Positions 35,472-59,292 of a stretch of DNA of 64,000 nt are shown here, piece after piece. The stretch comes from a virus (taxonomy: Duplodnaviria; Heunggongvirae; Uroviricota; Caudoviricetes), in IMG/VR virus record IMGVR_UViG_2851955134_000009; one strand, 5' to 3'. The notes beneath the pieces were generated by a model that was not told the DNA's origin, made no database searches, and was given only the letters and a program-made list of their open reading frames with translations. Each line of letters opens with the position of its first letter. Within the stretch, counting starts at the first letter, position 1. The translations under genes and the position numbers were made by a program.

Positions 35472-36236
35472 ATGAAAATGCAGACATTACCCATCGTTCC
35501 ATGGATTGGTGGCAAACGCCGCCTTGCAAAACACATTCTGCCGCTGTTTCCGGCGCATGAATGTTATGTGGAGCCGTTTTGTGGGGCAGCAGCGCTCTAT
35601 TTTCTTAAGACACCCGGCAAGATCGAAGTCATCAATGATATCAACGGTGAACTGGTGAATCTGTACCGGGTGGTAAAGCATCACCTGGAAGAATTTGTCC
35701 GCCAGTTCAAATGGGCGCTGGTCAGCCGTCAGATCTACAAATGGCTGCAGATCACCCCGGAAGAAACACTGACGGATATCCAGCGTGCGGCACGGTTCTA
35801 CTACCTTCAGAAGCAGGCGTTTGGCGGCAAGGTGGCAGAGCACAGCTTCGGTACCTCCACCACATCCCCGCCACGCTTCAACCTGCTGCGTATTGAAGAA
35901 GAACTGTCAGCGGCACACCTGCGGCTTTCCAGAACAGTCATAGAACACATGGACTGGCAACAGTGCATTGAGCGTTATGATCGTCCGCACACGCTGTTCT
36001 ACTGCGACCCACCGTACCTGGGTACGGAAGGCTATGGTGTGGATTTTCCTGAAGGGAACTACTCGCGGCTGGCAGAGCTGGCCCGGTGCATCAGAGGAAA
36101 AATGATAATTTCGGTGAACGACATCCCGCAGATGCGCGAGGTGTTCACTGGACTGAACATACAGACAGTGAATATCAACTACAGTCTGGCGGGTAAATCC
36201 ACGCCGCGCCGTGAACTGCTAATCTGCAACTTCTGA
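35472..36236 (+). CDS. DNA N6-adenine methyltransferase (Dam/D12 class)
   Basis: AdoMet-binding motif EPFCGAAALYF near the N-terminus and catalytic DPPY motif; 254 aa. Confidence 0.8.
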   Translation: MKMQTLPIVPWIGGKRRLAKHILPLFPAHECYVEPFCGAAALYFLKTPGKIEVINDINGELVNLYRVVKHHLEEFVRQFKWALVSRQIYKWLQITPEETLTDIQRAARFYYLQKQAFGGKVAEHSFGTSTTSPPRFNLLRIEEELSAAHLRLSRTVIEHMDWQQCIERYDRPHTLFYCDPPYLGTEGYGVDFPEGNYSRLAELARCIRGKMIISVNDIPQMREVFTGLNIQTVNINYSLAGKSTPRRELLICNF

Positions 36237-36352: not shown

Positions 36353-36700
36353 TCAGCCTGCGATTTTTCCTGGTTTTGGCTGAGTATAGAAGCGCCCAAC
36401 CTCAAGAAATGAGCGTCGTTGCTCCGGAGTCATTTCATCAAATGCGTCCATTAATTTCTGTTTGTCTGGTGACATTTTTGGGATAGCGTTGGTAGTTGCA
36501 TCCCCTCTCTGTCCCGTAACAACGTAAAGCACGTCAAGCCCCAAAGTAGCCCAAATTGCCAAAGCATCTGCTCCGGGAGCGGATTCATCCTTTTCCCACC
36601 GCAATTGGCTTTTATAGGATGCCCCCACCAATTCAGCAAACTCAGACTGACTAAATCCTAGGCGGTTTCGTTCTTCTTTTAATCGTGAACCAAGTGACAT
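36353..36700 (-). CDS. HTH (XRE-type) repressor, Mu c-like position
   Basis: N-terminal HTH (LKEERNRLGFSQSEFAELVG); divergently transcribed from the Ner-like gene. Confidence 0.6.
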   Translation of the reverse strand: MSLGSRLKEERNRLGFSQSEFAELVGASYKSQLRWEKDESAPGADALAIWATLGLDVLYVVTGQRGDATTNAIPKMSPDKQKLMDAFDEMTPEQRRSFLEVGRFYTQPKPGKIAG

Positions 36701-36793
36701 TTTTGTCCCAATATCTATTTACATATCCCATTATTGGGATAATAATCTAACAAATATAAAGCAAACATCATTGCACTAAACAAGGAGACAACA
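36701..36793. promoter_or_regulatory. divergent early control region with operator-like inverted repeat
   Basis: Intergenic region between repressor and Ner-like genes; contains atccca-ttat-tgggat (36725-36740) plus a related half-site upstream. Confidence 0.3.
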
Positions 36794-36982
36794 ATGACTG
36801 CAGACCAGGTCAAAGCTCATTTCCGTCGCAATGGGATCACTTTTACCCAGTGGGCAAAACAGAACAACTACACCAGAGCGGAGGTTTACCGCGTACTGAA
36901 TGGCCAGGTAAAAGCGAACTACGGCAAAGCCCATGAAATCGCTGTCAAGCTGGGATTAAAAACCATCACTGACGCCGCTTAA
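36794..36982 (+). CDS. Ner-like DNA-binding protein
   Basis: 62 aa; the segment GKAHEIAVKLGL resembles the Ner/Nlp family; first gene of the rightward early operon. Confidence 0.6.
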   Translation: MTADQVKAHFRRNGITFTQWAKQNNYTRAEVYRVLNGQVKANYGKAHEIAVKLGLKTITDAA

Positions 36983-37035
36983 AAAGATACAGCATACGAA
37001 AAAGATTATCACATATTGAAAAAAGAGGTGTGCAG

Positions 37036-37344
37036 ATGAGTAAGACGAATGTTTCAAGCTCCGGCAGTCGCATCCTCCGGGTACTAAAAGCGCTGCGTGG
37101 TCATGCTCTGAACGGTATTTCCAACGGTGAACTGGCAGCAGCACTGCACGAGTCACCGGCGAACATCAACCGGGCACTCAACACCCTCATTGAAGAAGGG
37201 CTGGCTCTGAAACTGGAGAACGGACGTTTCGCACCGGGCATTCAGTTGCTGCAGATCGCCATGGCCCACAGTAACGAGATGGCACGTGCACAGGATCGTA
37301 TTAACGAAATTAACCAACGTGTTATTTCAGGAAGTCGTTTGTAA
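37036..37344 (+). CDS. putative winged-helix transcriptional regulator
   Basis: About 100 aa; HTH-like segment (ISNGELAAALHESPANINRALNTLIEEGL). Confidence 0.35.
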   Translation: MSKTNVSSSGSRILRVLKALRGHALNGISNGELAAALHESPANINRALNTLIEEGLALKLENGRFAPGIQLLQIAMAHSNEMARAQDRINEINQRVISGSRL

Positions 37345-37354
37345 GGAGTAATCA

Positions 37355-38272
37355 ATGGGACGCACCAAATCACCGGTTAGCACTGAACTGAACGTCGAGG
37401 TACCGCTGTCGGATGATCTCAATGTCAGTCTGAACGCCATGACACAGCATCGCATGGAAATCATGCAACAGTTCGGCGATGGTCTGCCCTATGAGCGCGA
37501 TCGTGTTGTCCATGAGGCACGCTTTTATATGGCACAGAGCGCTGAGGCCATGCTGGAGGCAGGTAAACGGCTAATAATCCTTAAGGAAAATGAACCACAC
37601 GGGGAGTTTATAAAGATTCTTGAAAGTGAGTTGGGGCTGGCATACCGGACATCTGTGAGAATGATGCAGGCATCGACAAAATACTTATCCCCGGCGCTGA
37701 AACCAAATGTGCCAACGTTGGCACATTTGGGAAAAGCCAAACTTTTCGAATTAATGACAGAAGACGACGAAGAGCTTGCCGAACTGGCCGACGGCGGTAC
37801 GGTTGCCGGCCTGACGCTTGACGATGTTGATCGCATGTCAGTACGTGAACTTCGTCAGGCCCTGCGCGAAGCGCGCGAAACCAATGCAGCACAACAGCGT
37901 GTTCTAGCCGACAAAAATGAAAAAATCGACTCACTCTCCACCAGGCTGGAGAAAAAATCCCGTATTCAACCGCCTGAGCCTGATGAAGAGGTGAAGAAGC
38001 TGCGGGCGGAAGTGACCGCATTAGCGGTTGAGGCGGAATCTGCCATCGCCGTCCGGCTCTCCGGTGCCTTTGAAACCCTGTGTGAATACTGCAGTAAAAA
38101 CATGATTGATACCCCCAGAGATTTCATGGCCGGTCTGGTCTGCCAGATTGAACGCAGTGTTCATGCATTGCGTGAGACGTTCGACCTTGATGCCGCACCA
38201 TCGGGTAACGATGTCCCCGCATGGCTGACCGAACCGGAGCCTGAAATCAACCGACCGGAGGGCATGCGTTAA
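37355..38272 (+). CDS. hypothetical protein (early region)
   Basis: 305-aa ORF with a coiled-coil central region, between Ner-like and transposase genes. Confidence 0.35.
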   Translation: MGRTKSPVSTELNVEVPLSDDLNVSLNAMTQHRMEIMQQFGDGLPYERDRVVHEARFYMAQSAEAMLEAGKRLIILKENEPHGEFIKILESELGLAYRTSVRMMQASTKYLSPALKPNVPTLAHLGKAKLFELMTEDDEELAELADGGTVAGLTLDDVDRMSVRELRQALREARETNAAQQRVLADKNEKIDSLSTRLEKKSRIQPPEPDEEVKKLRAEVTALAVEAESAIAVRLSGAFETLCEYCSKNMIDTPRDFMAGLVCQIERSVHALRETFDLDAAPSGNDVPAWLTEPEPEINRPEGMR

Positions 38273-38589
38273 TGAACACGAATAATACACAAAATATCCT
38301 GATGGACAGCCCGGAAGCACTGGGGCACGCACTGTGTAATCTGCTGCCGGAGATGGTGCAGGGTTTCCGCGTGGTGACACCTTCCGGTGAAATCTGCGTA
38401 CCCGCACAGGAGGCGCATCCGTTTGTACTGACGATGGAAGTGATGCTGATGCAGCAGATAAGACGTCTGCAGCATCAGTCAGCATTGCGCCCGGCAGTTG
38501 CGCCGCAACCGGTAAATAACGTGGTGAAAACCTGCGATGGCGAAACCCTGCGCGACCGTGCCAGAAAAATTGCCGCCAGAATCGGATAA
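38272..38589 (+). CDS. hypothetical protein
   Basis: 105-aa ORF whose start overlaps the upstream stop. Confidence 0.3.
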   Translation: MNTNNTQNILMDSPEALGHALCNLLPEMVQGFRVVTPSGEICVPAQEAHPFVLTMEVMLMQQIRRLQHQSALRPAVAPQPVNNVVKTCDGETLRDRARKIAARIG

Positions 38590-38604
38590 CAGGGAAGACA
38601 AGCT

Positions 38605-40374
38605 ATGACCCCGGCACTGACTGAAAAACTTGTTGAAACAGCCCGCGCGGCACGTAATGCGGGGCATGGTAAACGCGGTGCAATATACGACGCTGCCTGT
38701 GCTGAACTTGGCATGTCCCGCGCCACTCTGCTGCGCAGGCTGAAGGAGGTCTCTGTGACTGATAAACGCAAAAAACGCGCCGATGCCGGACGCAGCACCC
38801 TGACCCGCGACGAAGCCGCGCTGATATCTGCCACACTACGTGAGGCCACCCGCAAGAACGGTAAGCGTCTCTATTCCATCGCGGATGCAGTGGAAACCCT
38901 GCGGGCTAACGGCTTTATCTCCGCAGGCAGAACAGATGAAACCACCGGTGAGTTTTTCCCGTTGTCCGAAGATGCCATCAGTCGTGCCCTGCGTAACTAT
39001 GGCCTGCACCCGGAACAACTGGATGCCCCTGCACCGCATACCGAAGTGGCCAGTCTGCACCCCAATCATGTCTGGCAGATTGACGCCTCACTCTGCACGC
39101 TTTACTACCTGAGCAATGGACATAAAGGGCTGCAGGTGATGGACAGCGCGAAATTCTACAAAAACAAGCCCGCTAACCTTGCCCGTATCGCCAGTGACCG
39201 CGTGTGGAGTTACGAGATTACCGACCATGCCAGCGGCTGGATTTACGTTGAGTATGTGACGGGTGCGGAATCCGGTGAGAACCTGTGTTCTGTGCTTATC
39301 AACGCCATGCAGGAGCGTGGCGGCGCAGACGTGCTGCACGGCGTGCCAAAAATACTCTATCTCGACCCCGGCTCGGCAAACACCGCGGGTATGACGAAAA
39401 ACATGTGCCGCTCACTGGGCATCGACCTGATAGCGCACAAGCCGCATAACGCCCGCGCCACCGGACAGGTGGAAAAGGCGCGTGACATTATCGAACGCAA
39501 GCTGGAGCCGGGTCTGAAGTTCCGGCCGGTTCACAGTCTGGAAGAACTCAACGCGCTGGCCGCGAAATGGCGCAGCCACTTTAACGCCACGGCTGTTCAC
39601 AGCCGCCACGGTAAAACCCGCACGGATATCTGGCTGAAGATTACTGCTGAGCAGCTGAAAAAAGCGCCTTCCGTTGAGGTATGTCGTGAACTGGCTGTGG
39701 CGGCACCAGAACTCCGCAAAGTCACGCCAAAACTTCGTGTCTCGTTCCGGGGCACTGAATTTGACGTATCAACGGTACCGGGCGTACTGGTCGGTGAAAA
39801 ACTGATGATTACCCGTAACCCGTGGCGCAGCGATGTGGCACAGGTGGTTCTGACCGGTGAGGACGGCCACGAGACGTTCTTCCTGGTCGAAGAGGTCAGA
39901 AAGAACGAGTTTGGCTTTGCTGAAGGCGCGGCGGTATTTGGCGAAAGTTACAAAGCCCTGCCGGAAACCCCGGCGCAGATGGCGGCAAAAGAAACCGAAG
40001 CGCTGGTCACCGGTACAGACAACGCCGCAGATGCAGCTGCCGCACGCAAGGCGAAGGCGCTGCCGTTCGGCGGGCGGCTTGACCCGTATAAACATATTGA
40101 TGACGCCACACTTCCGGCCTGTATACCGAAGCGTGGTCAGGCCTCTGACGTACGCGGACCGCGCACTGAACAGCGTCCCATGACTCATGTGGAGGCCGCG
40201 AAAGCCCTGCGCGGGAAGTTTAGCGCAAACGGCCTGACCTGGACGCCGGAACATTACCGCCAGTTAACAGCACAGTACCCGGACGGCGTACCGGAAGCCG
40301 CACTGGATGAAGTCATGGCCACGCTGACCACGCCGGCCCGCAGCAGCGTTATCAGCATTGTTAACGGCAACTGA
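38605..40374 (+). CDS. DDE transposase (MuA-like)
   Basis: 589 aa; rve-type catalytic core with candidate DDE residues (WQIDAS, YLDPGSANT, downstream E); followed by a MuB-like ATPase. Confidence 0.75.
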   Translation: MTPALTEKLVETARAARNAGHGKRGAIYDAACAELGMSRATLLRRLKEVSVTDKRKKRADAGRSTLTRDEAALISATLREATRKNGKRLYSIADAVETLRANGFISAGRTDETTGEFFPLSEDAISRALRNYGLHPEQLDAPAPHTEVASLHPNHVWQIDASLCTLYYLSNGHKGLQVMDSAKFYKNKPANLARIASDRVWSYEITDHASGWIYVEYVTGAESGENLCSVLINAMQERGGADVLHGVPKILYLDPGSANTAGMTKNMCRSLGIDLIAHKPHNARATGQVEKARDIIERKLEPGLKFRPVHSLEELNALAAKWRSHFNATAVHSRHGKTRTDIWLKITAEQLKKAPSVEVCRELAVAAPELRKVTPKLRVSFRGTEFDVSTVPGVLVGEKLMITRNPWRSDVAQVVLTGEDGHETFFLVEEVRKNEFGFAEGAAVFGESYKALPETPAQMAAKETEALVTGTDNAADAAAARKAKALPFGGRLDPYKHIDDATLPACIPKRGQASDVRGPRTEQRPMTHVEAAKALRGKFSANGLTWTPEHYRQLTAQYPDGVPEAALDEVMATLTTPARSSVISIVNGN

Positions 40375-40384
40375 GGAGGGAAAC

Positions 40385-41551
40385 ATGCTGGTACTGAAGC
40401 AGCAACTGAAAGAGGCCCGTATTCCACAGGCGGTGGCGGCGAGAGCTGTCGATGTTTCTGAGGCCACGCTGGCCCAGATTGTGAATCATAACGCGTGGCC
40501 CCGCACCAGCCCCGGAGAAGTGCGCCGGCGTCTTGCGTCCTGGCTGGAAAGTCAGGGGATTGATACAACGAAGAGTTTTGATGCTGTACAGGGCGCGGCC
40601 ACGCCCCGTACAGCGGGTACCACAGATAAAACGAGCCTCAGTGAGGAAGAGAATATGTTACTCAAAAAACAGGTGTTATTTCCAGCAACCAAAAAAGCGT
40701 TTGGTCTTTTCCGTGACCCGTTCGCCGATGAAGCCATGCAGGGTTCTGATGATGTGTTCACCACCCCGGACATTCGCTACGTGCGTGAGGCGCTGTACCA
40801 GACAGCCCGTCATGGTGGGTTTATGGCCGTCATCGGTGAGTCCGGTGCGGGTAAATCCACGCTGCGCCGCGACCTGACTGAACGTATTAACCGCGAGAAT
40901 GCGCCGGTAATTGTTATCGAGCCATACATCATCGCTATGGAAGACAACGATGTGAAAGGGAAAACCCTGAAGGCAGCAGCTATTGCCGAAGCCATTATCA
41001 GTACCATCGCACCACTGGAAAGCATCAGACGCAGTCAGGACGCCCGCTTTCGCCAGTTGCATCGCGTCCTGAAAGACAGCAGCCAGGCGGGGTTCAGCCA
41101 CGTTCTGGTGATTGAGGAGGCCCACAGTCTGCCCATTCCGACACTGAAACACCTCAAACGCTTTTTTGAGCTGGAGTCCGGTTTCAAAAAACTGCTGTCC
41201 ATCGTGCTGATTGGCCAGCCGGAACTGGCGACAAAACTGTCTGAACGCAATATGGAAGTCCGTGAAGTCGTTCAGCGCTGTGAGGTGGTCGAACTTCTGC
41301 CTCTGGACAATAACCTTGAAGAATTTCTGACGTTCAAACTGCAACGGGCCGGTAAACAACTGACGGACATTATGGACGCCAGCGCAGTGGATGCCATACG
41401 TGCCCGCCTGAGCAATCCGGGAAGTCATCGTAAAAATATGGTCAGCCTGCTGTATCCGCTGGCCGTCAGTAACCTGGTAATAGCCGCCATGAATCTGGCC
41501 GCTGAAATCGGGGTTCCACAGGTCAACGCTGACGTTGTCAAAGGAGTTTAA
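40385..41551 (+). CDS. transposition ATPase (MuB/TniB-like AAA+)
   Basis: Walker A GESGAGKST, Walker B-like HVLVIEEAH; immediately downstream of the transposase. Confidence 0.65.
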   Translation: MLVLKQQLKEARIPQAVAARAVDVSEATLAQIVNHNAWPRTSPGEVRRRLASWLESQGIDTTKSFDAVQGAATPRTAGTTDKTSLSEEENMLLKKQVLFPATKKAFGLFRDPFADEAMQGSDDVFTTPDIRYVREALYQTARHGGFMAVIGESGAGKSTLRRDLTERINRENAPVIVIEPYIIAMEDNDVKGKTLKAAAIAEAIISTIAPLESIRRSQDARFRQLHRVLKDSSQAGFSHVLVIEEAHSLPIPTLKHLKRFFELESGFKKLLSIVLIGQPELATKLSERNMEVREVVQRCEVVELLPLDNNLEEFLTFKLQRAGKQLTDIMDASAVDAIRARLSNPGSHRKNMVSLLYPLAVSNLVIAAMNLAAEIGVPQVNADVVKGV

Positions 41552-46466: not shown

Positions 46467-46510
46467 TATTTATCTCACGGATCCCCCTTCATTTATCTCA
46501 TGTCTGATCA
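46467..46510. repeat. Mu-like element terminal repeat, right-hand copy in window coordinates (putative transposase-binding sites)
   Basis: Reverse complement reads TGATCAGACATGAGATAAATG...GTGAGATAAATAA, matching the end at 8916. Confidence 0.55.
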
Positions 46511-46516
46511 ATTATT
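46511..46516. repeat. ATTATT direct repeat, right copy (putative target-site duplication)
   Basis: Identical to 8910-8915. Confidence 0.6.
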
Positions 46517-46535
46517 GCGTGTCAGGAGCGAAACA

Positions 46536-46967
46536 GTGAACAAACCACAATCCCTGCGCCACGCCCTCAATAAAGCGGTGCCTTATGTCCGCAATAACCC
46601 GGACAAACTGCATCTGTTTGTGGATAACGGTTCGCTGGTTGCCACGGGGGCCAGCTCCATGTCATGGGAGTACCGCTACACCCTGAACGTGGTGATTGAG
46701 GATTTCAGCGGCGACCAGAATCTGCTGATGGCCCCGGTTTTGCTGTGGCTGCGTGATAACCAGCCCGATGCCATCAATAACCCGGCGTTACGGGAAAAGC
46801 TATTCACCTTTGAGGTGGATATTCTGCGCAACGATGTCTGTGATATCAGCCTCAACCTGCAACTGACGGAGCGTGTGCTGGTCAGCACTGACGGCAGTGT
46901 GTCGAGCGTTGAAGCTATAGCGGAACCTGATGAACCTGAAGAAATGTGGACGGTGAAACGTGGCTGA
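46536..46967 (+). CDS. R: tail completion protein (P2 gpR-like)
   Basis: GTG start at 46536 with an AGGAG RBS; the upstream ATG of the track ORF (46500) lies inside the Mu-like terminus. Confidence 0.65.
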   Translation: MNKPQSLRHALNKAVPYVRNNPDKLHLFVDNGSLVATGASSMSWEYRYTLNVVIEDFSGDQNLLMAPVLLWLRDNQPDAINNPALREKLFTFEVDILRNDVCDISLNLQLTERVLVSTDGSVSSVEAIAEPDEPEEMWTVKRG

Positions 46968-47406
46968 ACTGCAGAAAGTGGACGACTGGCTGAGTGCCTT
47001 GCTGGCGAATCTGGAGCCAGCCGCAAGAAGCCGCATGATGCGCCAGCTGGCGCAGGAACTACGCCGGACACAGCAGCAAAATATCAGAATGCAGCGCAAT
47101 CCAGATGGCAGCAGTTATGAACCGCGACGGGTAACAGCACGCAGTAAAAAAGGCCGTATCAAACGTCAGATGTTTGCAAAGCTGCGCACCACAAAATACC
47201 TGAAAACTTCCGCCAGCGCCGACTCTGCCAGCGTGCAGTTTGAAGGCAAGGTGCAGCGCATTGCCCGCGTTCACCATTACGGCCTGCGAGATCGCGTCAG
47301 TCGTAAGGGACCGGAGGTGCGTTACGCAGAGCGTCGCCTTCTGGGTGTAAATGATGATGTTGAGGCAATGACCCGCGACATGATTCTGCAATGGCTGGCG
47401 GGGTGA
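46960..47406 (+). CDS. S: tail completion protein (P2 gpS-like)
   Basis: 148 aa overlapping the R stop, as in P2. Confidence 0.7.
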   Translation: MAELQKVDDWLSALLANLEPAARSRMMRQLAQELRRTQQQNIRMQRNPDGSSYEPRRVTARSKKGRIKRQMFAKLRTTKYLKTSASADSASVQFEGKVQRIARVHHYGLRDRVSRKGPEVRYAERRLLGVNDDVEAMTRDMILQWLAG

Positions 47407-47474
47407 TCTTTGTATCAGCACTGATACAAGTTGCAGCACTGCCGCCTTTCTTCCCCTGATGGCAACCTTTCCCT

Positions 47475-48053
47475 ATGAACGCACAATTAACCGAAATCAT
47501 GCGCCTTATCACCAACCTGATCCGCACAGGGGTAGTCACCGAAGTGGACAGGGAAAACTGGCTTTGCCGGGTGAAAACGGGCGAGCTTGAAACCAACTGG
47601 ATCAGCTGGCTGACGCTGCGTGCCGGGAATGCCCGTACATGGTGGCGACCATCGGAAGGTGAGCAGGTGGTGCTGCTGAGTCTGGGCGGCAATCTGGAAA
47701 CCGCCTTTGCGCTGCCCGCTGTCTATTCGAATCAGTTCGCACCACCGTCGACGTCGGCGGACGCCTGCGTGACAGAACATCCTGACGGTGGCTGGTTTGA
47801 ATACGAACCCGCCACCGGGCGCTGGTATGTCAGGGGCATCAAATCAATGGTCATTGAGGCTGCTGACAACATCACCATGAAAACCAGTGAGTTTGTACTG
47901 GAGGCTGACCGCACGCGCATTAACAGCGAAGTGGTGATCAATGGTGGCGTTACCCAGGGCGGCGGAGCGATGAGTTCTAACGGGATCGTGGTTGATGCGC
48001 ATCAGCATACTGGCGTCCTGAAAGGCGGCGATACAACCGGAGGCCCGGTATGA
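47475..48053 (+). CDS. V: baseplate assembly/spike protein (P2 gpV-like)
   Basis: 192 aa, first gene of the V-W-J-I-H-G cluster. Confidence 0.8.
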   Translation: MNAQLTEIMRLITNLIRTGVVTEVDRENWLCRVKTGELETNWISWLTLRAGNARTWWRPSEGEQVVLLSLGGNLETAFALPAVYSNQFAPPSTSADACVTEHPDGGWFEYEPATGRWYVRGIKSMVIEAADNITMKTSEFVLEADRTRINSEVVINGGVTQGGGAMSSNGIVVDAHQHTGVLKGGDTTGGPV

Positions 48054-48409
48054 CGCTTTATAGCGGGATGAACAATACCAGCGGCAAAGTCATTACTGAT
48101 ATTGATCATCTGCGCCAGTCGGTGCGGGACATTCTGCTGACACCGCAGGGTAGCCGTATTGCCCGCCGGGAATATGGTTCCCTGCTGTCGGCACTGATAG
48201 ATCAGCCACAAAATCCGGCATTACGCCTGCAGGTCATGTCGGCAGTGTATGTGGCGCTGAGTCGCTGGGAGCCACGGTTGACGCTGGATTCCATCACCAT
48301 CAACAGCAATTTTGACGGTTCAATGGTGGTGGAGCTGACCGGGCGGCGGAATAACGGTGTGCCTGTGTCCCTTTCCGTATCAACAGGAGCAGAGAATGGC
48401 AGTGATTGA
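48050..48409 (+). CDS. W: baseplate wedge protein (P2 gpW-like)
   Basis: 119 aa. Confidence 0.8.
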   Translation: MTLYSGMNNTSGKVITDIDHLRQSVRDILLTPQGSRIARREYGSLLSALIDQPQNPALRLQVMSAVYVALSRWEPRLTLDSITINSNFDGSMVVELTGRRNNGVPVSLSVSTGAENGSD

Positions 48410-49304
48410 CCTTTCGCAGTTGCCTGCACCGCAGATTGTGGATGTGCCGGACTTTGAGACGCTGCTTGCCGAACGCAAGGCAGAATTTGTGGCGCTTCAT
48501 CCGAAAGATGAGCAGGAAGCAGTGATCCGCACGCTGGAACTGGAATCTGAACCCGCCACTAAATTGTTGCAGGAGAACGCTTACCGTGAGTTGCTTCTGC
48601 GCCAGCGCATTAACGAAGCCGCGCAGGCGGTGATGGTGGCTTACGCGATGGGCGGCGATCTTGACCAGCTCGCTGCCAACTACAACGTGACACGCCTGAC
48701 GGTGACGCCTGCTGATAATGATGCTGTGCCGCCCGTTGCAGCTGTGATGGAAAGCGATGAAGCGTTGCGCCTGCGTGTGCCTGCAGCCTTTGAAGGGCTT
48801 TCTGTTGCGGGGCCAACTGCAGCTTATGAATTTCATGCCCGAAGCGCCGACGGTCGGGTGGCGGATGCCAGTGCAACCAGCCCGGCACCTGCAGAGGTGG
48901 TGCTGACTGTCCTTAGCCGCGAAGGCGATGGAACTGCAGAAAAAGACCTGCTGGACGTGGTGGAAAAAGCTCTGAACAGTGAGAACGTCCGCCCGGTGGC
49001 TGACCGTCTTACGGTTCGCAGCGCAGAAATCATCCCGTATCGCGTGGAAGCCACCATTTTTCTCTATCCTGGACCGGAAGCAGAGCCGGTAATGGCAGCG
49101 GCAAAAGCCAGCCTGCAGAAGTACATCGCCAGTCAGACGCGTCTTGGTCGGGATATTCGCCGTAGCGCCATCTTTGCCGCCCTGCATGTTGAGGGGGTGC
49201 AGCGTGTGGAGCTGGCTTCTCCTCTGGCGGATGTGGTCCTGAACAAAACACAGGCGGCATCATGTACGCAGTGGAGCGTAACCAACGGAGGAACGGATGA
49301 ATAG
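48396..49304 (+). CDS. J: baseplate protein (P2 gpJ-like)
   Basis: Start at MAVIDL (48396), overlapping the W stop. Confidence 0.8.
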   Translation: MAVIDLSQLPAPQIVDVPDFETLLAERKAEFVALHPKDEQEAVIRTLELESEPATKLLQENAYRELLLRQRINEAAQAVMVAYAMGGDLDQLAANYNVTRLTVTPADNDAVPPVAAVMESDEALRLRVPAAFEGLSVAGPTAAYEFHARSADGRVADASATSPAPAEVVLTVLSREGDGTAEKDLLDVVEKALNSENVRPVADRLTVRSAEIIPYRVEATIFLYPGPEAEPVMAAAKASLQKYIASQTRLGRDIRRSAIFAALHVEGVQRVELASPLADVVLNKTQAASCTQWSVTNGGTDE

Positions 49305-49902
49305 TCTGCTGCCACCGGGTTCAACACCACTGGAGCGCCGACTGGCGCAAACCTGCAGCGGGATTTCTGATCTGCAGGTGCCGCTTCGTGATTTGTGGAA
49401 TCCGGCAACCTGTCCGGTCAGTTTCCTGCCTTATCTCGCCTGGGCGTTCTCTGTGGATCGCTGGGACGAGGGCTGGACAGAAAGCGTCAAGCGCCAGGTG
49501 GTGAAGGATGCTTTTTATATTCATCAGCATAAAGGGACCACCAGTGCCGTGCGGCGGGTGGTGGAGCCGTTCGGATTCCTGATCCGCATTATTGAGTGGT
49601 GGCAGACCGGAGAAACACCGGGCACGTTTCGCCTGGATATCGGCGTGCAGGACCAGGGCATCACTGAAGATACCTATCTGGAACTTGAGCGACTGATAAG
49701 CGATGCCAAACCATGTAGCCGCCACATGATCGGCATGTCCATCAATCTGCAGACCAGCGGCCCGCATTGGGTGGGAGCCGCCAGCTATCTTGGCGAAGAA
49801 ATCACGATCTATCCGTATATCAACGAAACGATTATTTCCGGTGGCACCGCGCATGAAGGCGGGGCGGTCCATGTTATTGACACAATGAGAGTGAATCCAT
49901 GA
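49297..49902 (+). CDS. I: baseplate protein (P2 gpI-like)
   Basis: 201 aa. Confidence 0.75.
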   Translation: MNSLLPPGSTPLERRLAQTCSGISDLQVPLRDLWNPATCPVSFLPYLAWAFSVDRWDEGWTESVKRQVVKDAFYIHQHKGTTSAVRRVVEPFGFLIRIIEWWQTGETPGTFRLDIGVQDQGITEDTYLELERLISDAKPCSRHMIGMSINLQTSGPHWVGAASYLGEEITIYPYINETIISGGTAHEGGAVHVIDTMRVNP

Positions 49903-51257
49903 GCACAAAATTTTATACCCTGCTGACGGATATTGGCGCGGCGAAACTTGCCAGCGCCGCCGCGCTCGGTGTGCCGCTAAAAATTACCCATATGGCGGTG
50001 GGCGATGGCGGTGGAGTATTGCCAACGCCGGACGCAAAGCAGACGGCACTGGTAAATGAGAAACGCCGGGCTGCGCTGAATATGCTTTATATCGACCCGC
50101 AGAACAGCAGCCAGATTATTGCCGAACAGGTGATCCCTGAAAACGAGGGCGGTTGGTGGATACGTGAAGTGGGCCTGTTTGATGAGTCAGGGGCATTGAT
50201 TGCCGTGGGCAACTGCCCGGAAAGCTATAAGCCGCAACTGGCTGAAGGTAGCGGGCGCACTCAGACCGTGCGCATGGTGCTGATTACCAGCAGCACGGAC
50301 AATATCACCCTGAAAATCGACCCTGCTGTAGTGCTGGCAACCCGCAAGTATGTGGATGACAAGGCACTGGAGCTGAAGGTGTACGCGGATGATCAGATGG
50401 CAAAACATCTTGCCGCACCGGACCCGCATTCACAGTACGCGCCAAAAGCCAGCCCGACATTTACCGGAACCCCCAAAGCGCCAACGCCAGCGGCGGGGAA
50501 TAATACCACGCAGGTTGCGACCACTGCGTTTGTACAGGCGGCACTGACGGCCCTTATTAATGGTGCGCCAGCCACGCTGGACACGCTGAAAGAAATAGCC
50601 GCAGCCATTAACAATGATCCGAATTTCAGTACCACCATTAACAATGCGCTGGCACTAAAAGCACCGTTGTCGAGTCCGGCACTCACCGGAACGCCAACAG
50701 CCCCCACGGCGGCGCAGTCGGTCAACAATACACAGATTGCCACTACGGCTTTTGTGAAATCGGCGATTGCAGGAATGGTGGGTTCTGCACCTGCTGCACT
50801 GGATACACTGAACGAACTGGCGGCGGCACTGGGGAATGATCCGAACTTTGCCACGACAATGCTTAATGCGCTGGCAGGTAAACAACCGCTGGACAATACG
50901 CTTACCAATTTGAGTGGAAAGGATGTAGCTGGTCTTCTCACATACCTTGGTTTAAGAGCAAGCGGGCAGTACACCGATAATTTGTTATTTACAGGTCCTG
51001 ATGGTCTTAAGATTCAGGTGTTTCGCCGGACGCTCGCAAATTTGACTACTGTCGGTGTAGTAAATTCTGTGCCAGTGACTTTCCCTGTCCCGTTCCCTGT
51101 TAATTGCTGGGGCGTTTTTTCTACCAAATTAACATGGGTTCAGATAACTAACTCATGCGAGTGGGTAAGCAATACAGGATTTACCGCTCAGGTCATGATG
51201 AATATTGCTGTAAATACAAACACCTCAGACGCTATGTTTTTAGCTATAGGATATTAA
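49899..51257 (+). CDS. H: tail fibre protein (P2 gpH-like)
   Basis: 452 aa; N-terminal part conserved with the Mu-like fibre, C-terminal tip differs beyond the junction peptide (LLTYLGL). Confidence 0.8.
   Translation: MSTKFYTLLTDIGAAKLASAAALGVPLKITHMAVGDGGGVLPTPDAKQTALVNEKRRAALNMLYIDPQNSSQIIAEQVIPENEGGWWIREVGLFDESGALIAVGNCPESYKPQLAEGSGRTQTVRMVLITSSTDNITLKIDPAVVLATRKYVDDKALELKVYADDQMAKHLAAPDPHSQYAPKASPTFTGTPKAPTPAAGNNTTQVATTAFVQAALTALINGAPATLDTLKEIAAAINNDPNFSTTINNALALKAPLSSPALTGTPTAPTAAQSVNNTQIATTAFVKSAIAGMVGSAPAALDTLNELAAALGNDPNFATTMLNALAGKQPLDNTLTNLSGKDVAGLLTYLGLRASGQYTDNLLFTGPDGLKIQVFRRTLANLTTVGVVNSVPVTFPVPFPVNCWGVFSTKLTWVQITNSCEWVSNTGFTAQVMMNIAVNTNTSDAMFLAIGY
50937..50962. other. candidate invertase crossover site inside P2-like H (diverged)
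   Basis: Reverse complement cttgctcttaaaccaaggtatgtgag shares the AAACCAAGG core with the other three sites but is less conserved. Confidence 0.35.
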
Positions 51258-51258
51258 T

Positions 51259-51699
51259 ATGAATCGTTTTGTGTTCAGTCCATCTGAGTCCCGTTTTTAT
51301 GCCATCGAGTGGCAGGCTGATTATGTTGATAATAATTGTTGGCCACATGATGCCATTAACGTTAGTGACAGCATTTATTATGAGTTTTCCGGCACTCCCC
51401 CTACAGGTAAGCAACTTATAACTTTAAATAACATGCCAGCATGGGGTGATATTCCTCCACCTACACGAGAAGAATTAATTGTCGCTGCTGATGTGGAGAA
51501 GCAAAAAAGAATAGATTTAGCCAATGATTACATGAACGGTAAGCAATGGCCTGGTAAAGCAGCTATTGGTCGTCTGAAAGGTGAGGAACTGGCACAATAT
51601 AATTTGTGGCTGGATTATCTGGACGCACTGGAGCTGGTCGATACCGCCAGTGCGCCAGATATTGAATGGCCTACGCCTCCGGCAGTTCAGGCCAGATGA
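51259..51699 (+). CDS. G: tail fibre assembly protein (P2 gpG-like)
   Basis: 146 aa immediately downstream of H. Confidence 0.7.
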   Translation: MNRFVFSPSESRFYAIEWQADYVDNNCWPHDAINVSDSIYYEFSGTPPTGKQLITLNNMPAWGDIPPPTREELIVAADVEKQKRIDLANDYMNGKQWPGKAAIGRLKGEELAQYNLWLDYLDALELVDTASAPDIEWPTPPAVQAR

Positions 51700-52273
51700 C
51701 ATCTGGCGCGGTGCTGGTATCAGTTGCCGTCACCGCGTCAATGTAATCCAGTACAGCGTTAAGGCTGGTTGTTTCTGCCTGCGTCAGTTTACGTCCGGCC
51801 TGCAATTTCAGCTGAATCAGACTGATTGAAGCCATTGCAGTATCAATCAGTGACTGGCGCTGTGCTTCTGCTGCATCTACTGCGGCGCTATGCTGTGCTT
51901 CGGTATCCGTCACCCATTTCTCACCATCCCATTTATCGTATGGCGTTAACGGGGCGATAGTGGTTGTATTATCAGGGTAATCACCCGGAGCTGTGATTTC
52001 TTTTGATTCTCCTGTTTCGGTGCTAAAGACGATTTCACCGCGATGGTCTGGCACATATTCCCATGAGTTAAAATCTACAGATCGGCAGATTGCATAACCA
52101 GCTTTGTATGTGCCAGGGGCATCTAAACAGGAATATGCAGGGATACCGACACCAACGGCAAGATATTCAGTTGATGTGGAAATATATTCCCGTGTTTCGC
52201 CATCATAGTTATAGACGGTAATATTCCCCGCCTTTGTAGCAATAAACTCGCTATTTAATACAGCGTTATCCAT
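51671..52273 (-). CDS. alternative tail fibre assembly protein (inverted cassette)
   Basis: 200 aa, convergent with G; roughly half of its residues match the Mu-like chaperone at 10106-10720 by visual alignment. Confidence 0.7.
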   Translation of the reverse strand: MDNAVLNSEFIATKAGNITVYNYDGETREYISTSTEYLAVGVGIPAYSCLDAPGTYKAGYAICRSVDFNSWEYVPDHRGEIVFSTETGESKEITAPGDYPDNTTTIAPLTPYDKWDGEKWVTDTEAQHSAAVDAAEAQRQSLIDTAMASISLIQLKLQAGRKLTQAETTSLNAVLDYIDAVTATDTSTAPDVIWPELPEA

Positions 52274-52815
52274 TATGCAGCCCTCACGATATAGTTAAAT
52301 GCAATATTCCGTGGACGGGTTTCATTTATCCCATATGCTGTTGTTCTCTGATTCCCGACAAAATATCCATTTGGATTAGAAGATACAGAATAATCATCAA
52401 AATCAAGTGGGCTATCAGCACCCGGCGTCAGGCTTGCAATATATCCTCTTCCCATAACTTCTGATGCTGGTATTTCTTTTGTACGATAATCACTAACTCT
52501 GAAGAGCTGCCCTTGGTGGGTGTGTGATTCCACTCCTCCATTCTGAAGACTTAGCAAGGCACGTACAGCATCAATACCACGCCCGTCATCCCAGCCACGA
52601 ATAAACTCACCACGTAAATCAGGCAATTTATTTGTCGGATAAGCCTTTGCCAGTTCCGGGTATTCTTCAGCAGAAAAAGCGGCACCGTTGCATTTCAGCC
52701 AGCCTGTTGGCGGAGTGGCTGAAGGCCACGGAACAGGCACCCCAACCGGTAATGCAGAGCCTTCTCCCAAACCAACGTTTATGAAAATGCAGAGATAACG
52801 GCTAACTGGCATCAT
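52273..52815 (-). CDS. alternative tail-fibre C-terminal (tip) segment, promoterless in current orientation
   Basis: Contains GLGEGSALPVGVPVPWPSATPPTGW junction peptide and NIAFNYIVRAA C-terminus; homologous to the Mu-like fibre tips. Confidence 0.6.
   Translation of the reverse strand: MMPVSRYLCIFINVGLGEGSALPVGVPVPWPSATPPTGWLKCNGAAFSAEEYPELAKAYPTNKLPDLRGEFIRGWDDGRGIDAVRALLSLQNGGVESHTHQGQLFRVSDYRTKEIPASEVMGRGYIASLTPGADSPLDFDDYSVSSNPNGYFVGNQRTTAYGINETRPRNIAFNYIVRAA
52762..52787. other. invertase crossover site (hix/gix-like) adjacent to the P2-like invertase
   Basis: ttctcccaaaccaacgtttatgaaaa, 26-bp imperfect dyad. Confidence 0.5.
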
Positions 52816-52836
52816 CCCCGGTTTTTATTCAGGGGA

Positions 52837-53409
52837 TTGATCATGCTTATTGGCTATGTACGCGTGTCAACAAATGACCAGAACACCGATTTGCAACGTA
52901 ATGCACTGAACTGCGCGGGATGTGAGCGGATTTTTGAGGACAAAATCAGTGGCACTAAGTCCGACAGACCGGGGCTGAAAAAACTACTCAGGACACTATC
53001 GGCAGGAGACACGCTGGTTGTCTGGAAGCTGGACAGGTTGGGGCGCAGTATGCGGCATCTTGTTACGCTGATAGAAGAGTTGCGCCAGCGTGGTGTGAAT
53101 TTCAGAAGCCTGACTGACAGTATTGATACCAGTACCCCAATGGGCCGTTTCTTTTTTCATGTCATGGGTGCCCTGGCTGAAATGGAACGCGAACTGATAG
53201 TTGAACGTACCAGGGCAGGGCTGGCTGCAGCTCGTGCCAAAGGCAGAGTAGGTGGACGCCGTCCTAAGTTGACCACCGAACAGTGGGCACAGATTGGGCG
53301 TTTACTCGAGGCCGGAGAATCAAGACAGCGTATTGCACTGATTTTTGATGTAGGCGTTTCTACCATTTATAGAAAATTTCCGGCAAATAAGATCAATGAA
53401 TCCCCCTGA
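52837..53409 (+). CDS. serine DNA invertase (Gin/Pin/Hin family)
   Basis: 190 aa, MIMLIGYVRVSTNDQ...; most residues match the Mu-like invertase at 8994-9566 by visual alignment. Confidence 0.85.
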   Translation: MIMLIGYVRVSTNDQNTDLQRNALNCAGCERIFEDKISGTKSDRPGLKKLLRTLSAGDTLVVWKLDRLGRSMRHLVTLIEELRQRGVNFRSLTDSIDTSTPMGRFFFHVMGALAEMERELIVERTRAGLAAARAKGRVGGRRPKLTTEQWAQIGRLLEAGESRQRIALIFDVGVSTIYRKFPANKINESP

Positions 53410-53551
53410 ATCAGCATTATGTTGATTATCCCTGCAAGCAGACAAATACCGTTATTTTGTGTGAATAACGACACAACTGCGCTTAGCTGTTTGTCAGGCA
53501 CAATCACTTCAACATAGGGCGAAGCCTAATCCAATCAGGAGGTTCGCCACT

Positions 53552-54724
53552 ATGGCTCAGGATTACCACCACGGGGTGCGCGTTGTTGAAGTCAACGAAG
53601 GCACCCGATCTATTACCACGGTGAGCACCGCCATCGTGGGTATGGTCTGCACGGGCGATGATGCCGATGCAAAAATGTTTCCTCTTAATAAACCCGTGCT
53701 GATCACTGATGTGCTGACTGCCAGCGGTAAAGCGGGTGAGTCAGGTACTCTGGCCCGTTCGCTGGATGCCATCGCTGACCAGGCAAAACCCGTGACCATT
53801 GTTGTGCGTGTGCCGCAGGGTGAAACGGAAGACGAAACCACGACCAATATCATCGGCGCAGTGACCGCTGAAGGTAAAAAAACAGGTATGAAAGCCCTGT
53901 TATCTGCCCAGTCACAGCTCGGCGTTAAACCGCGCATTCTCGGCGTGCCAGGCCACGACACCAAGGCGGTAGCTACTGAGTTGCTGAGCGTGGCGCAAAG
54001 CCTGCGTGGATTTGCTTACCTGTCAGCGTATGGCTGCAAGACAGTGCAGGAGGCGATCACTTACCGCGAAAACTTCAGCCAGCGCGAAGGGATGCTGATC
54101 TGGCCTGACTTTACTGGCTGGGACACGGTGCTGAATGCCGAAGCAACGGCATATGCCACCGCCCGTGCGCTTGGTCTGCGCGCCAAAATTGACGAGCAGA
54201 CCGGATGGCACAAAAGCCTGTCCAACGTGGGCGTGAACGGTGTCACCGGAATTTCTGCAGATGTGTTCTGGGATCTGCAGGACCCGGCAACCGATGCAGG
54301 TCTGCTGAACCAGAACGACGTCACCACGCTTGTGCGTAAAGACGGTTTCCGCTTCTGGGGTTCCCGCTGCCTGAGTGATGACCCGCTCTTTGCCTTCGAA
54401 AACTACACCCGCACGGCGCAGGTGCTGATGGACACGATGGCAGAAGCACACATGTGGGCGGTGGATAAACCGCTTAACCCGTCGCTGGCCCGCGACATTA
54501 TCGAAGGTATCCGCGCCAAAATGCGCAGCCTGGTCAGTCAGGGCTATCTCATTGGTGGTGATTGCTGGCTGGATGAGTCGGTGAACGACAAAGACACGCT
54601 GAAAGCCGGAAAACTCACCATCGACTACGACTACACGCCAGTGCCGCCACTTGAAAACCTGATGCTGCGTCAGCGCATCACCGATCAGTACCTGGTGAAT
54701 TTCGCCAGCCAGGTCAGCGCGTAA
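53552..54724 (+). CDS. FI: contractile tail sheath protein (P2 gpFI-like)
   Basis: 390 aa followed by the tube gene. Confidence 0.85.
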
Positions 54725-54733
54725 GGGGACAAC

Positions 54734-55249
54734 ATGGCTTTACCACGCAAATTAAAACACCTGAACCTGTTTAACGACGGGAACAACTGGCAGGGGATCG
54801 TTGAGTCGCTGACGCTGCCGAAATTTACCCGCAAATATGAGAAGTATCGCGGCGGCGGAATGCCGGGTGCGGTGGATGTGGATCTGGGGCTTGATGACAG
54901 TGCGCTGGACACAGAATTTTCCATTGGTGGTACTGAATTGCTGCTGTTTAAACAGATGGGTAAAGCCACGGTGGATGGCATCCAGCTGCGCTTTACCGGC
55001 TCTATTCAGCGTGACGATACCGGGGAAGTGCAGGCCGTGGAGCTTGTCGTGCGTGGACGTCACAAAGAAGTGGATTCCGGCGAGTGGAAGACGGGCGAAA
55101 GCAACACGACCAAAGTGACCAGTACCAACAGCTACGCGAAGCTGACCATCAATGGTGAGGTGCTCTATGAAGTGGACCTTATCAACATGGTGGAAATTGT
55201 GGACGGTGTGGACCTGATGGAAGCGCACCGCAACGCCCTCGGCCTCTGA
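54734..55249 (+). CDS. FII: tail tube protein (P2 gpFII-like)
   Basis: 171 aa. Confidence 0.85.
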   Translation: MALPRKLKHLNLFNDGNNWQGIVESLTLPKFTRKYEKYRGGGMPGAVDVDLGLDDSALDTEFSIGGTELLLFKQMGKATVDGIQLRFTGSIQRDDTGEVQAVELVVRGRHKEVDSGEWKTGESNTTKVTSTNSYAKLTINGEVLYEVDLINMVEIVDGVDLMEAHRNALGL

Positions 55250-55303
55250 TATATCTGAACGGCGCGGGATACCGCGCCAGAACCCAATTGACAGGACAGT
55301 AAA

Positions 55304-55606
55304 ATGAGCGATAAGCAGACTGAAAAGACCATTCAACTGGATACCCCCATCAAGCGCGGTAAAACAGAAATCACCGAAATTGTGCTGCGTAAACCGCAGT
55401 CTGGTGCGCTACGCGGTACACGCCTGCAGGCCATTATGGATATGGATGTGAACGCGATGATGACCGTGATCCCCCGCATCTCCAGCCCGGCACTGACTGC
55501 ACAGGAAATTGCAGAGATGGACCCGGCAGATCTCACTGCCATGTCGGTTGAGGTTGTCACTTTTTTGTTGAAGAAGTCGGTGCTTGCCGGTTTACCGACA
55601 GCCTGA
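55304..55606 (+). CDS. E: tail assembly chaperone (P2 gpE-like)
   Basis: 100 aa; contains the slippery heptamer TTTTTTG at 55561-55567. Confidence 0.7.
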   Translation: MSDKQTEKTIQLDTPIKRGKTEITEIVLRKPQSGALRGTRLQAIMDMDVNAMMTVIPRISSPALTAQEIAEMDPADLTAMSVEVVTFLLKKSVLAGLPTA

Positions 55607-55741
55607 CGGTTGACGATCTGGTGGCAGATATCGCCACCATTTTTCACTGGCCGCCATCCGTTACTGACGTTATGCCGCTGACCGAAGTGCTGGAATGGCG
55701 GTATAAAGCGATTCAGAGAAGCGGGGCCAACGATGAGTGAT
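55304..55741 (+). CDS. tail assembly chaperone E+E' (predicted -1 frameshift product)
   Basis: A -1 shift at TTTTTTG (55561-55567) extends translation to the TGA at 55739-55741, overlapping the tape measure start, as in P2. Confidence 0.55.
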
Positions 55742-58700: not shown

Positions 58701-58810
58701 GTGCGCAGGATATTGCGCGGGAGGTTGCACGCCAGCTTGATGAACGTGAACGCAGGCTGAAGGCAAAAGCCAGGAGTAACTACAGCGATCAGGGGGGATA
58801 CGAAGCATGA
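55733..58810 (+). CDS. T: tail tape measure protein (P2 gpT-like)
   Basis: 1025 aa, coiled-coil-rich N-terminal half and hydrophobic segments. Confidence 0.85.
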   Translation: MSDNNLRLQVILNAVDKLTRPFRAAQASSKELAGAIQNTRNSLKELNKQAGRIDEFRKTRSQLAITANNLNAAREEAAKLATQFAATNRPTAAQAKLFSQAKTRVQELQQTYNGLVGAVQRQRQALKESGIDTRQLSSAQRELKKNAEETRQALEGQQKALKRLGEQQARMNAAREQYSRRLEVRDRIAGAGATTTAAGLAMGAPVMAAVKSYTSMEDAMKGVAKQVNGLRDDNGNRTARFYEMQDAIKAASEQLPMENGAVDFAALVEGGARMNVANPDDSWEDQKRDLLAFASTAAKAATAFELPADELSESLGKIAQLYKIPTRNIEQLGDALNYLDDNAMSKGADIIDVMQRLGGVADRLDYRKAAALGSTFLTLGAAPEVAASAANAMVRELSIATMQSKSFFEGMNLLKLNPEVIEKQMTKDAMGTIQRVLEKVNALPQDKRLSAMTMLFGKEFGDDAAKLANNLPELQRQLKLTAGNDALGSMQKESDINKDSLSAQWLLVKTGAQNTFSSLGETLRQPLMDILYTVKSITGALRRWVEANPELTGTLMKVAAVVAAVTVGLGTLAVALAAVLGPLAVIRLGFSVLGIKTLPSVTAAVTRTSNALSWLAGAPLALLRRGLASSGNAAGLLTAPLSSLRRTASLTGNVLKTVAGAPVALLRSGLSGLRAVAVMFMNPLAVLRGGLAAAGAVLRVLASGPLAMLRVALYAISGLLGALLSPIGLVVTALAGVALVVWKYWQPITAFLGGVVEGFKAAAGPISAAFEPLKPVFQWIGDKVQALWGWFTDLLTPVKSTSAELQSAAAMGRRFGEALAEGLNMVMHPLDSLKSGVSWLLDKLGIVSKEAAKAKLPESVTRQQPATVNADGKVMMPSGGFPSWGYGFAGMYDSGGYIPRGQFGIVGENGPEIVNGPANVTSRRNTAALAAVVAGMMGVAAAPAELPPLHPLALPAKGGEAMVSRAATVPPVQQLEAPTQIIIQTQPGQSAQDIAREVARQLDERERRLKAKARSNYSDQGGYEA

Positions 58811-59292
58811 TGATGGTGCTGGGATTGTACGTGTTTATGCTGCGCACCGTGCCGTATCAGGAGCTGCAGTATCAACGCAGCTGGCGACATGCGGCAAACA
58901 GCCGGGTAAACCGACGTCCGTCCACGCAGTTTCTGGGACCGGACAACGACATGCTGACGCTTTCCGGTGTTCTTATGCCGGAGATAACAGGTGGCAGGCT
59001 GTCGTTGCTGGCACTGGAGCAGATGGCAGAACAGGGGAAAGCATGGCCCCTGATTGAAGGCAGCGGCACGATTTATGGCATGTATGTGATTGAGGGACTG
59101 AATCAGACTAAAACGGAGTTTTTCCGCGACGGTATGCCGCGCCGGATTGAGTTCACCCTGTCGCTCAAAAGGGTGGATGAATCATTGTCCGATATGTTCG
59201 GTGATCTCAGTGCGCAACTGAATAATCTGCAGGACACGGCAACGTCTGCCTTAAGCGATATCAGTAAAACGGTGGGAGGGCTGCTGTCGTGA
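58807..59292 (+). CDS. U: tail protein (P2 gpU-like)
   Basis: 161 aa. Confidence 0.8.
   Translation: MMMVLGLYVFMLRTVPYQELQYQRSWRHAANSRVNRRPSTQFLGPDNDMLTLSGVLMPEITGGRLSLLALEQMAEQGKAWPLIEGSGTIYGMYVIEGLNQTKTEFFRDGMPRRIEFTLSLKRVDESLSDMFGDLSAQLNNLQDTATSALSDISKTVGGLLS

Follow-up and report, generated by a model that had tools for sequence, protein, structure and literature searches.

The window analysed here, a 64,000-nt stretch of Caudoviricetes DNA (IMG/VR record IMGVR_UViG_2851955134_000009), holds a BcepMu/B3-type transposable prophage in which three genes lie between the Ner-like gene and the transposase gene, encoding a 102-amino-acid (aa) winged-helix protein (wHTH), a 305-aa protein with a DUF3102 domain (DUF3102), and a 105-aa protein (p105). 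The wHTH and DUF3102 genes belong to the core early operon of the lineage, and on the basis of sequence comparison it is on balance probable that DUF3102 binds a perfect palindrome within its own gene, protein and site acting together as a phage-private cis/trans identity module.

Three same-strand open reading frames (ORFs) were confirmed from 36982 to 38605, as a previous sequence-only reading of the region had proposed. The first (37036–37344, +) encodes the stand-alone wHTH, matching Pfam HTH_IclR above its cut-off (27.3 bits, cut-off 22) and phrog_1368 (E 9e-45), in agreement with the helix-turn-helix (HTH) protein of about 100 aa noticed earlier; its ATG lies 8 nt behind an AAGAGG ribosome-binding site, and an alternative GTG at 37030 would give a protein of 104 aa. 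The second (37355–38272, +) encodes DUF3102, with a match to Pfam DUF3102 (PF11300; 30.4 bits, cut-off 24.4) over residues 65–172 and to phrog_1748 (E 4e-140). The third (38272–38589, +) is p105, which produced no Pfam match and a full-length match to phrog_5446 (E 1.6e-67). The overlapping stop and start codons ascribed to these genes were found only between DUF3102 and p105 (1 base, TAATG), when gaps of 10 nt and 15 nt separate wHTH from DUF3102 and p105 from the transposase gene, respectively.

Queries by tblastn with the 305-aa protein returned BcepMu gp10, phiE255 gp41, B3 ORF13, PM105_13, phiSHP3 orf17, JBD25 gp15 and others, and the order wHTH (~100 aa), DUF3102, transposase was shared by BcepMu, B3, phiE255, PM105, phiSHP3, JBD25, KP12 and PhiKM, with B3 ORF14, BcepMu gp12 and phiE255 gp42 as wHTH orthologues. 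Hidden Markov models built for the neighbouring genes were run on 74 genome loci collected with DUF3102 as the seed, which come from Enterobacterales, Burkholderiales, further beta- and gamma-proteobacteria, and metagenome-assembled genomes (MAGs) of Spirochaetia, and wHTH, DUF3102, transposase and ATPase followed each other in this order in ~70 of them. In the reverse test, seeded on the transposase in 80 IMG/VR contigs of 60–100% identity, DUF3102 was directly upstream of the transposase in all 80, and wHTH was present in 74 of the 74 contigs with enough upstream DNA. On the basis of this synteny, wHTH and DUF3102 are core to the lineage and obligatory companions of this transposase family, and ~150 loci from Enterobacterales to Spirochaetia show essentially no deviation from the order wHTH, DUF3102, transposase, AAA ATPase. 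The p105 gene is an accessory insert in the early operon: it was absent from KP12 and Phi06_2974 B, occurred in 409 E. coli genomes versus 627 with DUF3102, and was found in 22 of 165 loci in either of two slots (between DUF3102 and the transposase, or between a CII-like gene and wHTH). Only 11 close relatives of p105 were retrieved by homologue search.

The three genes had been described as extra in comparison to Mu, where ner (1099–1326) directly precedes the transposase gene A (at 1328), and they are so relative to that phage. Judged by sequence, Mu is nevertheless the wrong reference and not a close relative of this element, because the transposase is without BLASTP similarity to MuA and the Ner-like protein falls in the BcepMu gp16 family. 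A supplementary layer of regulation or host interaction, specific to this phage, would agree with p105 being optional and mobile within the operon, and accessory early-operon genes of Pseudomonas beetreviruses cause superinfection exclusion (PMC9936078). As an account of all three genes it is very unlikely, since for wHTH and DUF3102 it is already refuted by the synteny, which shows them universal in the lineage and tied to the transposase genes; furthermore, PADLOC gave no complete-system anti-defence match for either protein, and the PADLOC and NCBIfam scans gave no match for DUF3102 or p105. The description stays fair for the accessory 105-aa gene, and a DNA-binding, regulatory-type activity of DUF3102 is supported as a putative part of the transposition module, not of an add-on. 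As evidence that would count against it, the sequence-only reading had named homologues shown to be core early genes with known roles. Half of this holds: the homologues are core early genes, but the literature on DUF3102, on IclR in transposable phages and on BcepMu palindromes gave no function for the three genes and described no palindrome. Likewise, in the RNA-seq study of phage Fc02, the ORFs of the pE operon except A, B, gemA and mor were without assigned function (PMC9936078).

Within the DUF3102 gene, a repeat search identified a perfect spacer-less palindrome of 28 bp (37703–37730; 14+14 nt), in which CCAAATGTGCCAAC is joined directly to GTTGGCACATTTGG. This putative site of the DUF3102 HTH codes for residues 117–126 of the protein; the start codon of the transposase gene follows ~0.9 kb further on, and the operator region precedes the site by ~1 kb. 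No other perfect palindrome in the window has arms of 10 nt or longer; upon shuffling of the window, arms of 10–12 nt arose in 3/50 cases and arms of 14 nt in 0/50. No extra half-site copies above chance were present in the window. Of 155 DUF3102 genes, 121 showed Watson-Crick complementarity at 11 or more of the 13 symmetric positions in the homologous place, 71 of them perfectly, when codon-shuffled DUF3102 genes never exceeded 10 of 13. The palindrome was also found in B3 ORF13 (locus L004, 5350–5375) and BcepMu gp10 (locus L003, 5375–5404, 30 bp).

The aligned palindromes conform to a frame with the left half CAAA-W-S-N5-R-C and the right half G-Y-N5-S-W-TTTG, in which the outer four pairs are essentially invariant, each of the inner nine pairs occurs in 2–4 Watson-Crick types, and 9 of the 13 pairs change on both sides. 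In a covariation test (68 unique sequences, 500 shuffles), 95.9% of the cells were paired versus 73.0% upon shuffling (0/500 reached the observed value), with a covariation score of 0.565 versus 0.157 and 187 versus 56 cells changed on both sides; in a control in which the partner was slid by 1–3 columns, at most 45% of the cells were paired. In the palindrome centre, ACG/TTG alternates with GCG/CTG, the T/C change leaving a synonymous Leu codon, and the mismatches showed no preference for G·T (12, versus 18 for A·C). Because the two innermost pairs are complementary and covarying, and no excess of G·T was seen, the symmetry argues for the double-stranded DNA type rather than for a hairpin.

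An RNA or DNA hairpin (terminator or attenuator, RNase III site, or cruciform), unrelated to DUF3102 binding and with the protein variability being passive, would account for the GC-rich stem with its CAAA/TTTG flanks and for the folding energy (-15 kcal/mol, z = -4.3), and a site upstream of the transposase gene suits attenuation. It is still highly improbable: complementarity and covariation run through the central four bases, which are unpairable in a hairpin, there is no preference for G·U wobble, and the one-to-one match of a protein residue to a base pair described below is not predicted by it. As regards an intrinsic terminator in particular, the terminator scan did not report the palindrome (the T-run is too short), its central bases covary as pairs, and the Rfam search gave no match.

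In two loci, a perfect palindrome of the CAAA...TTTG frame was located elsewhere in the phage (L075, 2392–2417; L162, 2075–2098), their DUF3102 genes being without it; the one in L075 is at the junction of two lysis-region genes. This placement suggests that the site can function outside the DUF3102 gene.

The protein that reads the palindrome was approached by comparison of 74 unique combinations of HTH sequence and half-site. Residue 101 of DUF3102 corresponded to base 7 from the dyad almost without deviation, Q being found with C (38/38), R with G (19/19), and V, A, H, F or T with T (16/16), with one exception of S with G (mutual information 1.48 bit). Further coupling was observed for residues 96 and 99 with base pair 5, residue 98 with base pair 6, and residue 102 with base pair 4, and the other columns of this protein region gave background mutual information only. 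In the AlphaFold model, the coupled residues make up the first half, from the N-terminal side, of the putative recognition helix (97–110). When proteins with no more than 65% identity in their other parts were compared pairwise, identity in the turn and recognition helix was 71% for matching half-sites and 51% for differing ones. DUF3102 can with good confidence be predicted to be a site-specific HTH DNA-binding protein, the cognate site of which is the palindrome in its own gene. The wHTH was ruled out as reader of the variable core of the palindrome, because it is nearly invariant while the palindromes differ; between the window and PhiKM it differs by 1 residue and the palindrome at most inner base pairs, and over 58 enteric elements it formed one cluster at 85% identity, though palindromes and repressors vary. 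Probably, wHTH is a conserved partner, with a site or protein that is itself conserved as its target.

The HTH and the palindrome-encoded loop together form a hypervariable cassette (residues 83–135; 37601–37759, +) with 14 alleles in the 58 enteric elements. At 85% identity, DUF3102 residues 84–135 fell into 14 clusters in these elements, when wHTH, the transposase core and the other DUF3102 segments gave 1–2 clusters, residues 1–83 being essentially one. The palindrome is in the middle of this cassette. As candidate partners of the cassette, wHTH and the N-termini of transposase and ATPase were ruled out, all being nearly invariant and without covariation. Mutual information between the cassette and the repressor type was 1.61, against a permutation maximum of 1.42; despite this association, an operator-reading (immunity-type) role of the DUF3102 HTH was rejected on account of the many-to-many relation between the two.

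With 125 diverse homologues in the alignment, AlphaFold2 modelled DUF3102 at pLDDT 92.5 and pTM 0.68, when a shallow alignment gave a model that was not usable (pLDDT 53). The model is all-alpha, with the HTH helices 82–92 and 97–110, several short helices, and a long antiparallel hairpin (163–204 against 209–248) capped by helix 255–275, so that the 'coiled-coil' label given to the protein earlier was roughly right. Profile searches of PDB sequences returned weak coiled-coil or MafG-like matches only.

At the DNA level, the DUF3102 gene was far more diverged than the transposase region flanking it, being only 60–80% identical in 393 of the 627 E. coli genomes when the flanks were mostly 90–95% identical, and it is a recombination mosaic centred on residues 84–135 and the C-terminal 60 residues, the C-terminal variant tracking the presence of p105. 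Some DUF3102 homologues (P0206, P0230, P0290, P0193, P0236 and P0242) are 430–545 aa long, with N-terminal extensions of 150–260 aa. Three of them have repeated Cys/His-rich motifs resembling zinc ribbons, and a Pfam scan of the extensions gave no match.

In three prophages, of Symbiopectobacterium (L036, 4202–5200, -) and Arsenophonus (L043, 1175–2314, -; L048, 4201–5343, -), the gene in the repressor slot was identified as a fusion of an N-terminal DUF3102 half to an XRE part. The fusion gene is divergent from Ner, and its XRE part is homologous to the repressor encoded at 36353–36700 of the window. The DUF3102 half reaches from the HTH through the loop encoded by the palindrome into the beginning of the coiled coil. 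Its identity to the resident DUF3102 is ~82% over 166–170 aligned residues for L043 and L048; for L036, the longer alignment of 257 residues gave 63%, with an HTH cassette that is nearly the same as the resident one. Each of the fusions bears the HTH allele of the resident DUF3102, for which gene conversion between the fusion and resident copies could be an alternative source. In L036 a second palindrome is present in the fusion gene (4844–4869), so that the region with the promoter, Ner and wHTH has a palindrome on either side. Degraded fusion copies were observed in a Sodalis MAG (L044, L068).

As a mechanism, DUF3102 would bind as a dimer to the dyad-symmetric 26–28-bp palindrome inside its own coding sequence, with recognition helix and site being exchanged as one specificity cassette, of which at least 41 half-site variants occur, and the pair would work as a phage-private cis/trans identity module. 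The bound palindrome would be an enhancer-like or operator-like element, which may either permit the transposition complex to assemble on DNA of the phage itself or control how far transcription proceeds into the genes for transposase and ATPase, DUF3102 thereby doing, as a separate protein, the job of the N-terminal enhancer-binding domain of MuA in Mu. Such phage-private, cis-acting control of transposition or of transposase expression is the likely role, held with lower confidence than the binding itself; it would fit the strict linkage to a transposase in which no enhancer-binding domain like that of MuA is present, as well as the number of specificities and the fusion to the repressor. 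That DUF3102 and the palindrome, probably with wHTH, would constitute a hypervariable enhancer of transposition, or a licensing system, encoded apart from the transposase is proposed tentatively, as less than probable. If such a system were true, the near-identical transposases of co-resident prophages (up to 3 per E. coli genome) would replicate their own DNA only, and some prophages would have turned the DNA-binding module of DUF3102 into an immunity weapon by repressor fusion.

The palindrome is inside the operon and upstream of the transposase gene, which would also suit binding by DUF3102 purely as a transcriptional roadblock or auxiliary operator, with no role in the transposition complex; expression of transposase and ATPase would then be under negative feedback or a control resembling immunity. 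In the fusion prophages a repressor expressed in lysogeny has the same DNA-binding half, the palindromes bracketing promoter, Ner and wHTH resemble repressor looping, and diversification of the site could be an escape from cross-immunity. However, the strict and universal coupling to transposase and ATPase and the second conserved partner, wHTH, exceed what a simple autoregulator needs, and the same-frame palindromes of L075 and L162 are outside the operon; a pure roadblock is somewhat unlikely.

A further alternative is raised by the CII-like gene, which is located directly before wHTH in elements of beta- and non-enteric gamma-proteobacteria: together with the CII-like protein of B3 and BcepMu, wHTH and DUF3102, both with an HTH, might be ordinary transcription factors of the lysis-lysogeny decision that act on promoters elsewhere, and the palindrome one of their operators. 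This is quite unlikely, as the enteric elements have lost the CII-like gene and kept the wHTH and DUF3102 pair, the site is present as a single copy in the window and not at a promoter, and the HTH alleles do not follow immunity type.

Several observations weigh against the reading of DUF3102 and its palindrome as an identity module. The HTH alleles reassort freely with respect to the repressors (allele 0 is combined with 6 types of repressor, allele 5 with 7), and given this many-to-many table, the strict identity of enhancer and operator known from Mu does not apply. The in-gene palindrome is missing from 34 of the 155 homologues, including PM105, JBD25 and others with divergent N-domains; the A-tract and T-tract flanks look like those of a bidirectional terminator; and the palindrome is 8.8 kb from the nearer prophage end, as against ~1 kb for the Mu enhancer. 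The 68 sequences in the covariation test were preselected for complementarity of at least 11/13, which favours structure. The recognition helix and the palindrome are ~50 nt apart, so that linkage and cassette transfer inflate their association; that of residue 101 with base 7 was counted on combinations, not on independent co-changes, and the Q, R and hydrophobic classes of residue 101 could derive from a few ancient cassettes. All functional claims for DUF3102 are computational.

Among known systems, the Mu repressor and MuA share a DNA-binding domain, and the specificity of the reader differs between the related phages Mu and D108. By analogy, the arrangement put forward here resembles the enhancer (IAS), MuA I-alpha and repressor of Mu in having an internal cis site with a winged-helix or HTH reader needed alongside the transposase, in a reader specificity that varies between related phages, and, in the Arsenophonus-type fusions, a DNA-binding module common to the repressor and the transposition machinery. 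In contrast to Mu, the putative reader is a protein in its own right, unrelated to MuA in sequence and in fold, and the site is one perfect palindrome within a gene, 8.8 kb from the nearer end, which is not the operator and the alleles of which do not follow repressor type. A Mu-type enhancer coincides with the operators and its specificity follows immunity, when here the palindrome lies ~1 kb downstream of the operator region. The three-site (L-R-E) framework of Mu has been described previously (PMC3820752, PMC5977238).

The DUF3102 orthologues B3 ORF13, BcepMu gp10 and phiE255 gp41 (50.5%, 39.5% and 56.2% identity by tblastn, respectively) are each encoded in a wHTH and DUF3102 pair directly before the transposase, and those of B3 and BcepMu have the same palindrome inside the gene. 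The E. coli lineage of the window differs from these three phages in being without the upstream CII-like gene and in having p105 between DUF3102 and the transposase in two thirds of its members. Phage lambda O is an initiator with binding sites inside its own gene, and its DNA-binding part and site are exchanged between related phages. The likeness of DUF3102 to lambda O would be in the location of the site within the coding sequence of its putative binder, and in DNA-binding part and site moving as a cassette; the differences are that the lambda origin has four iterons and an AT-rich region versus one dyad here, that the proteins are non-homologous, and that replication by transposition needs no origin. 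With the IclR regulators, wHTH has the fold of the N-terminal winged helix in common and nothing further: it passes the HTH_IclR threshold, ends at residue 102 and is without an effector-binding domain.

The BcepMu/B3-type prophages are common (~12% of complete E. coli genomes, also Salmonella, Klebsiella, Burkholderia, Pseudomonas and insect symbionts), and their transposition has so far been read through the Mu model. A conserved, covarying palindrome paired with its putative reader was not found described in the literature. The covarying palindrome and the residue-base code offer a concrete, testable target for the DUF3102 family (over 2000 sequence clusters), and suggest a means by which such a phage might distinguish its DNA from a relative's. 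The at least 41 natural protein/site pairs, which appear from their sequences to be non-cross-reacting, could serve as genetic tools. For annotation, the lesson is that wHTH and DUF3102 represent a core transposition module and not cargo.

The early operon is predicted to run in the order pE, Ner-like, wHTH, DUF3102, p105, transposase and AAA ATPase. Divergent from it, an XRE-type immunity repressor of 115 aa is encoded at 36353–36700 (-), with matches to HTH_3/HTH_31 and phrog_4836/8; at least 17 repressor clusters fill this slot across related elements. An operator-like inverted repeat (CCCAATA, 19 nt, TATTGGG; feature 36706–36746, +, with the repeat within 36706–36743) was recognized by consensus matching only. 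It overlaps the best early-promoter candidate (TTTACA-17-AATAAT, 36718–36746), which had 10/12 matches in the promoter scan, likewise on consensus only. The first gene of the operon (36794–36982, +) encodes the small Ner-like HTH protein, which belongs to the BcepMu gp16 family (TIGR04111, 95.5 bits, cut-off 34; phrog_925) and gave no alignment and no similarity to Mu Ner.

The transposase gene (38605–40374, +) encodes a DDE (rve) transposase of the B3/Tn552 type (589 aa), which is 67% identical to that of BcepMu and 57% to that of B3. Pfam rve covers residues 152–282, so that only ~150 residues precede the core, and the alignment to phrog_310 begins at profile position 130. No BLASTP similarity to MuA was obtained (E 0.2), and Pfam HTH_Tnp_Mu_1, HTH_Tnp_Mu_2 and DDE_2, for all of which MuA itself scores, were not found in this transposase. 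The next gene (40385–41551, +) encodes an AAA_22 (ExeA/TniB-like) transposition ATPase, the MuB counterpart on the basis of domain and PHROG matches, and its start was taken from the RefSeq annotation of a 99.7% identical locus. In the 99.7% identical LR-31 prophage (NZ_AP027520.1) the ATPase gene is annotated as a pseudogene with an internal stop, when the copy in the window (40358–41551) is intact.

The prophage extends over 37,595 bp (8916–46510), from TGATGCG... at 8916 to ...TGATCA at 46510, with TGAT...ATCA ends flanked by a 6-bp target duplication, ATTATT (8910–8915 and 46511–46516). A 6-bp footprint is the value reported for the B3/Tn552-type transposase family (PMC8705779). Each prophage end has two GNGATAAATR repeats 23 bp apart, in inverted orientation between the ends (5 matches versus 0.55 expected). 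Joining of the flanks in silico restored an uninterrupted P2-like lysB/lysC sequence, 100% identical to the empty site in many E. coli genomes, and the element is therefore a B3/Tn552-type transposable phage inside a P2-like prophage. Genes of the latter were observed at 1440–8839 and 46500–60400, the insertion disrupting its lysB/lysC (Rz/Rz1-like) genes.

Related DNA is carried by 643 of 5426 complete E. coli genomes. Over a 5.3-kb region, identity to Escherichia phage PhiKM, a Bcepmuvirus by classification, was 92.8%. Transposase and ATPase, the TG...CA ends and the gene order all place the early operon with the BcepMu/B3 type; the Mu (Muvirus) type does not agree with the three genes between Ner-like gene and transposase gene or with a transposase having the rve domain only. 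A DNA adenine methylase gene is located at 35472–36236 (+), between the lysis genes and the repressor, and in related elements the same slot carries other cargo, including lipoproteins and a 328-aa protein.

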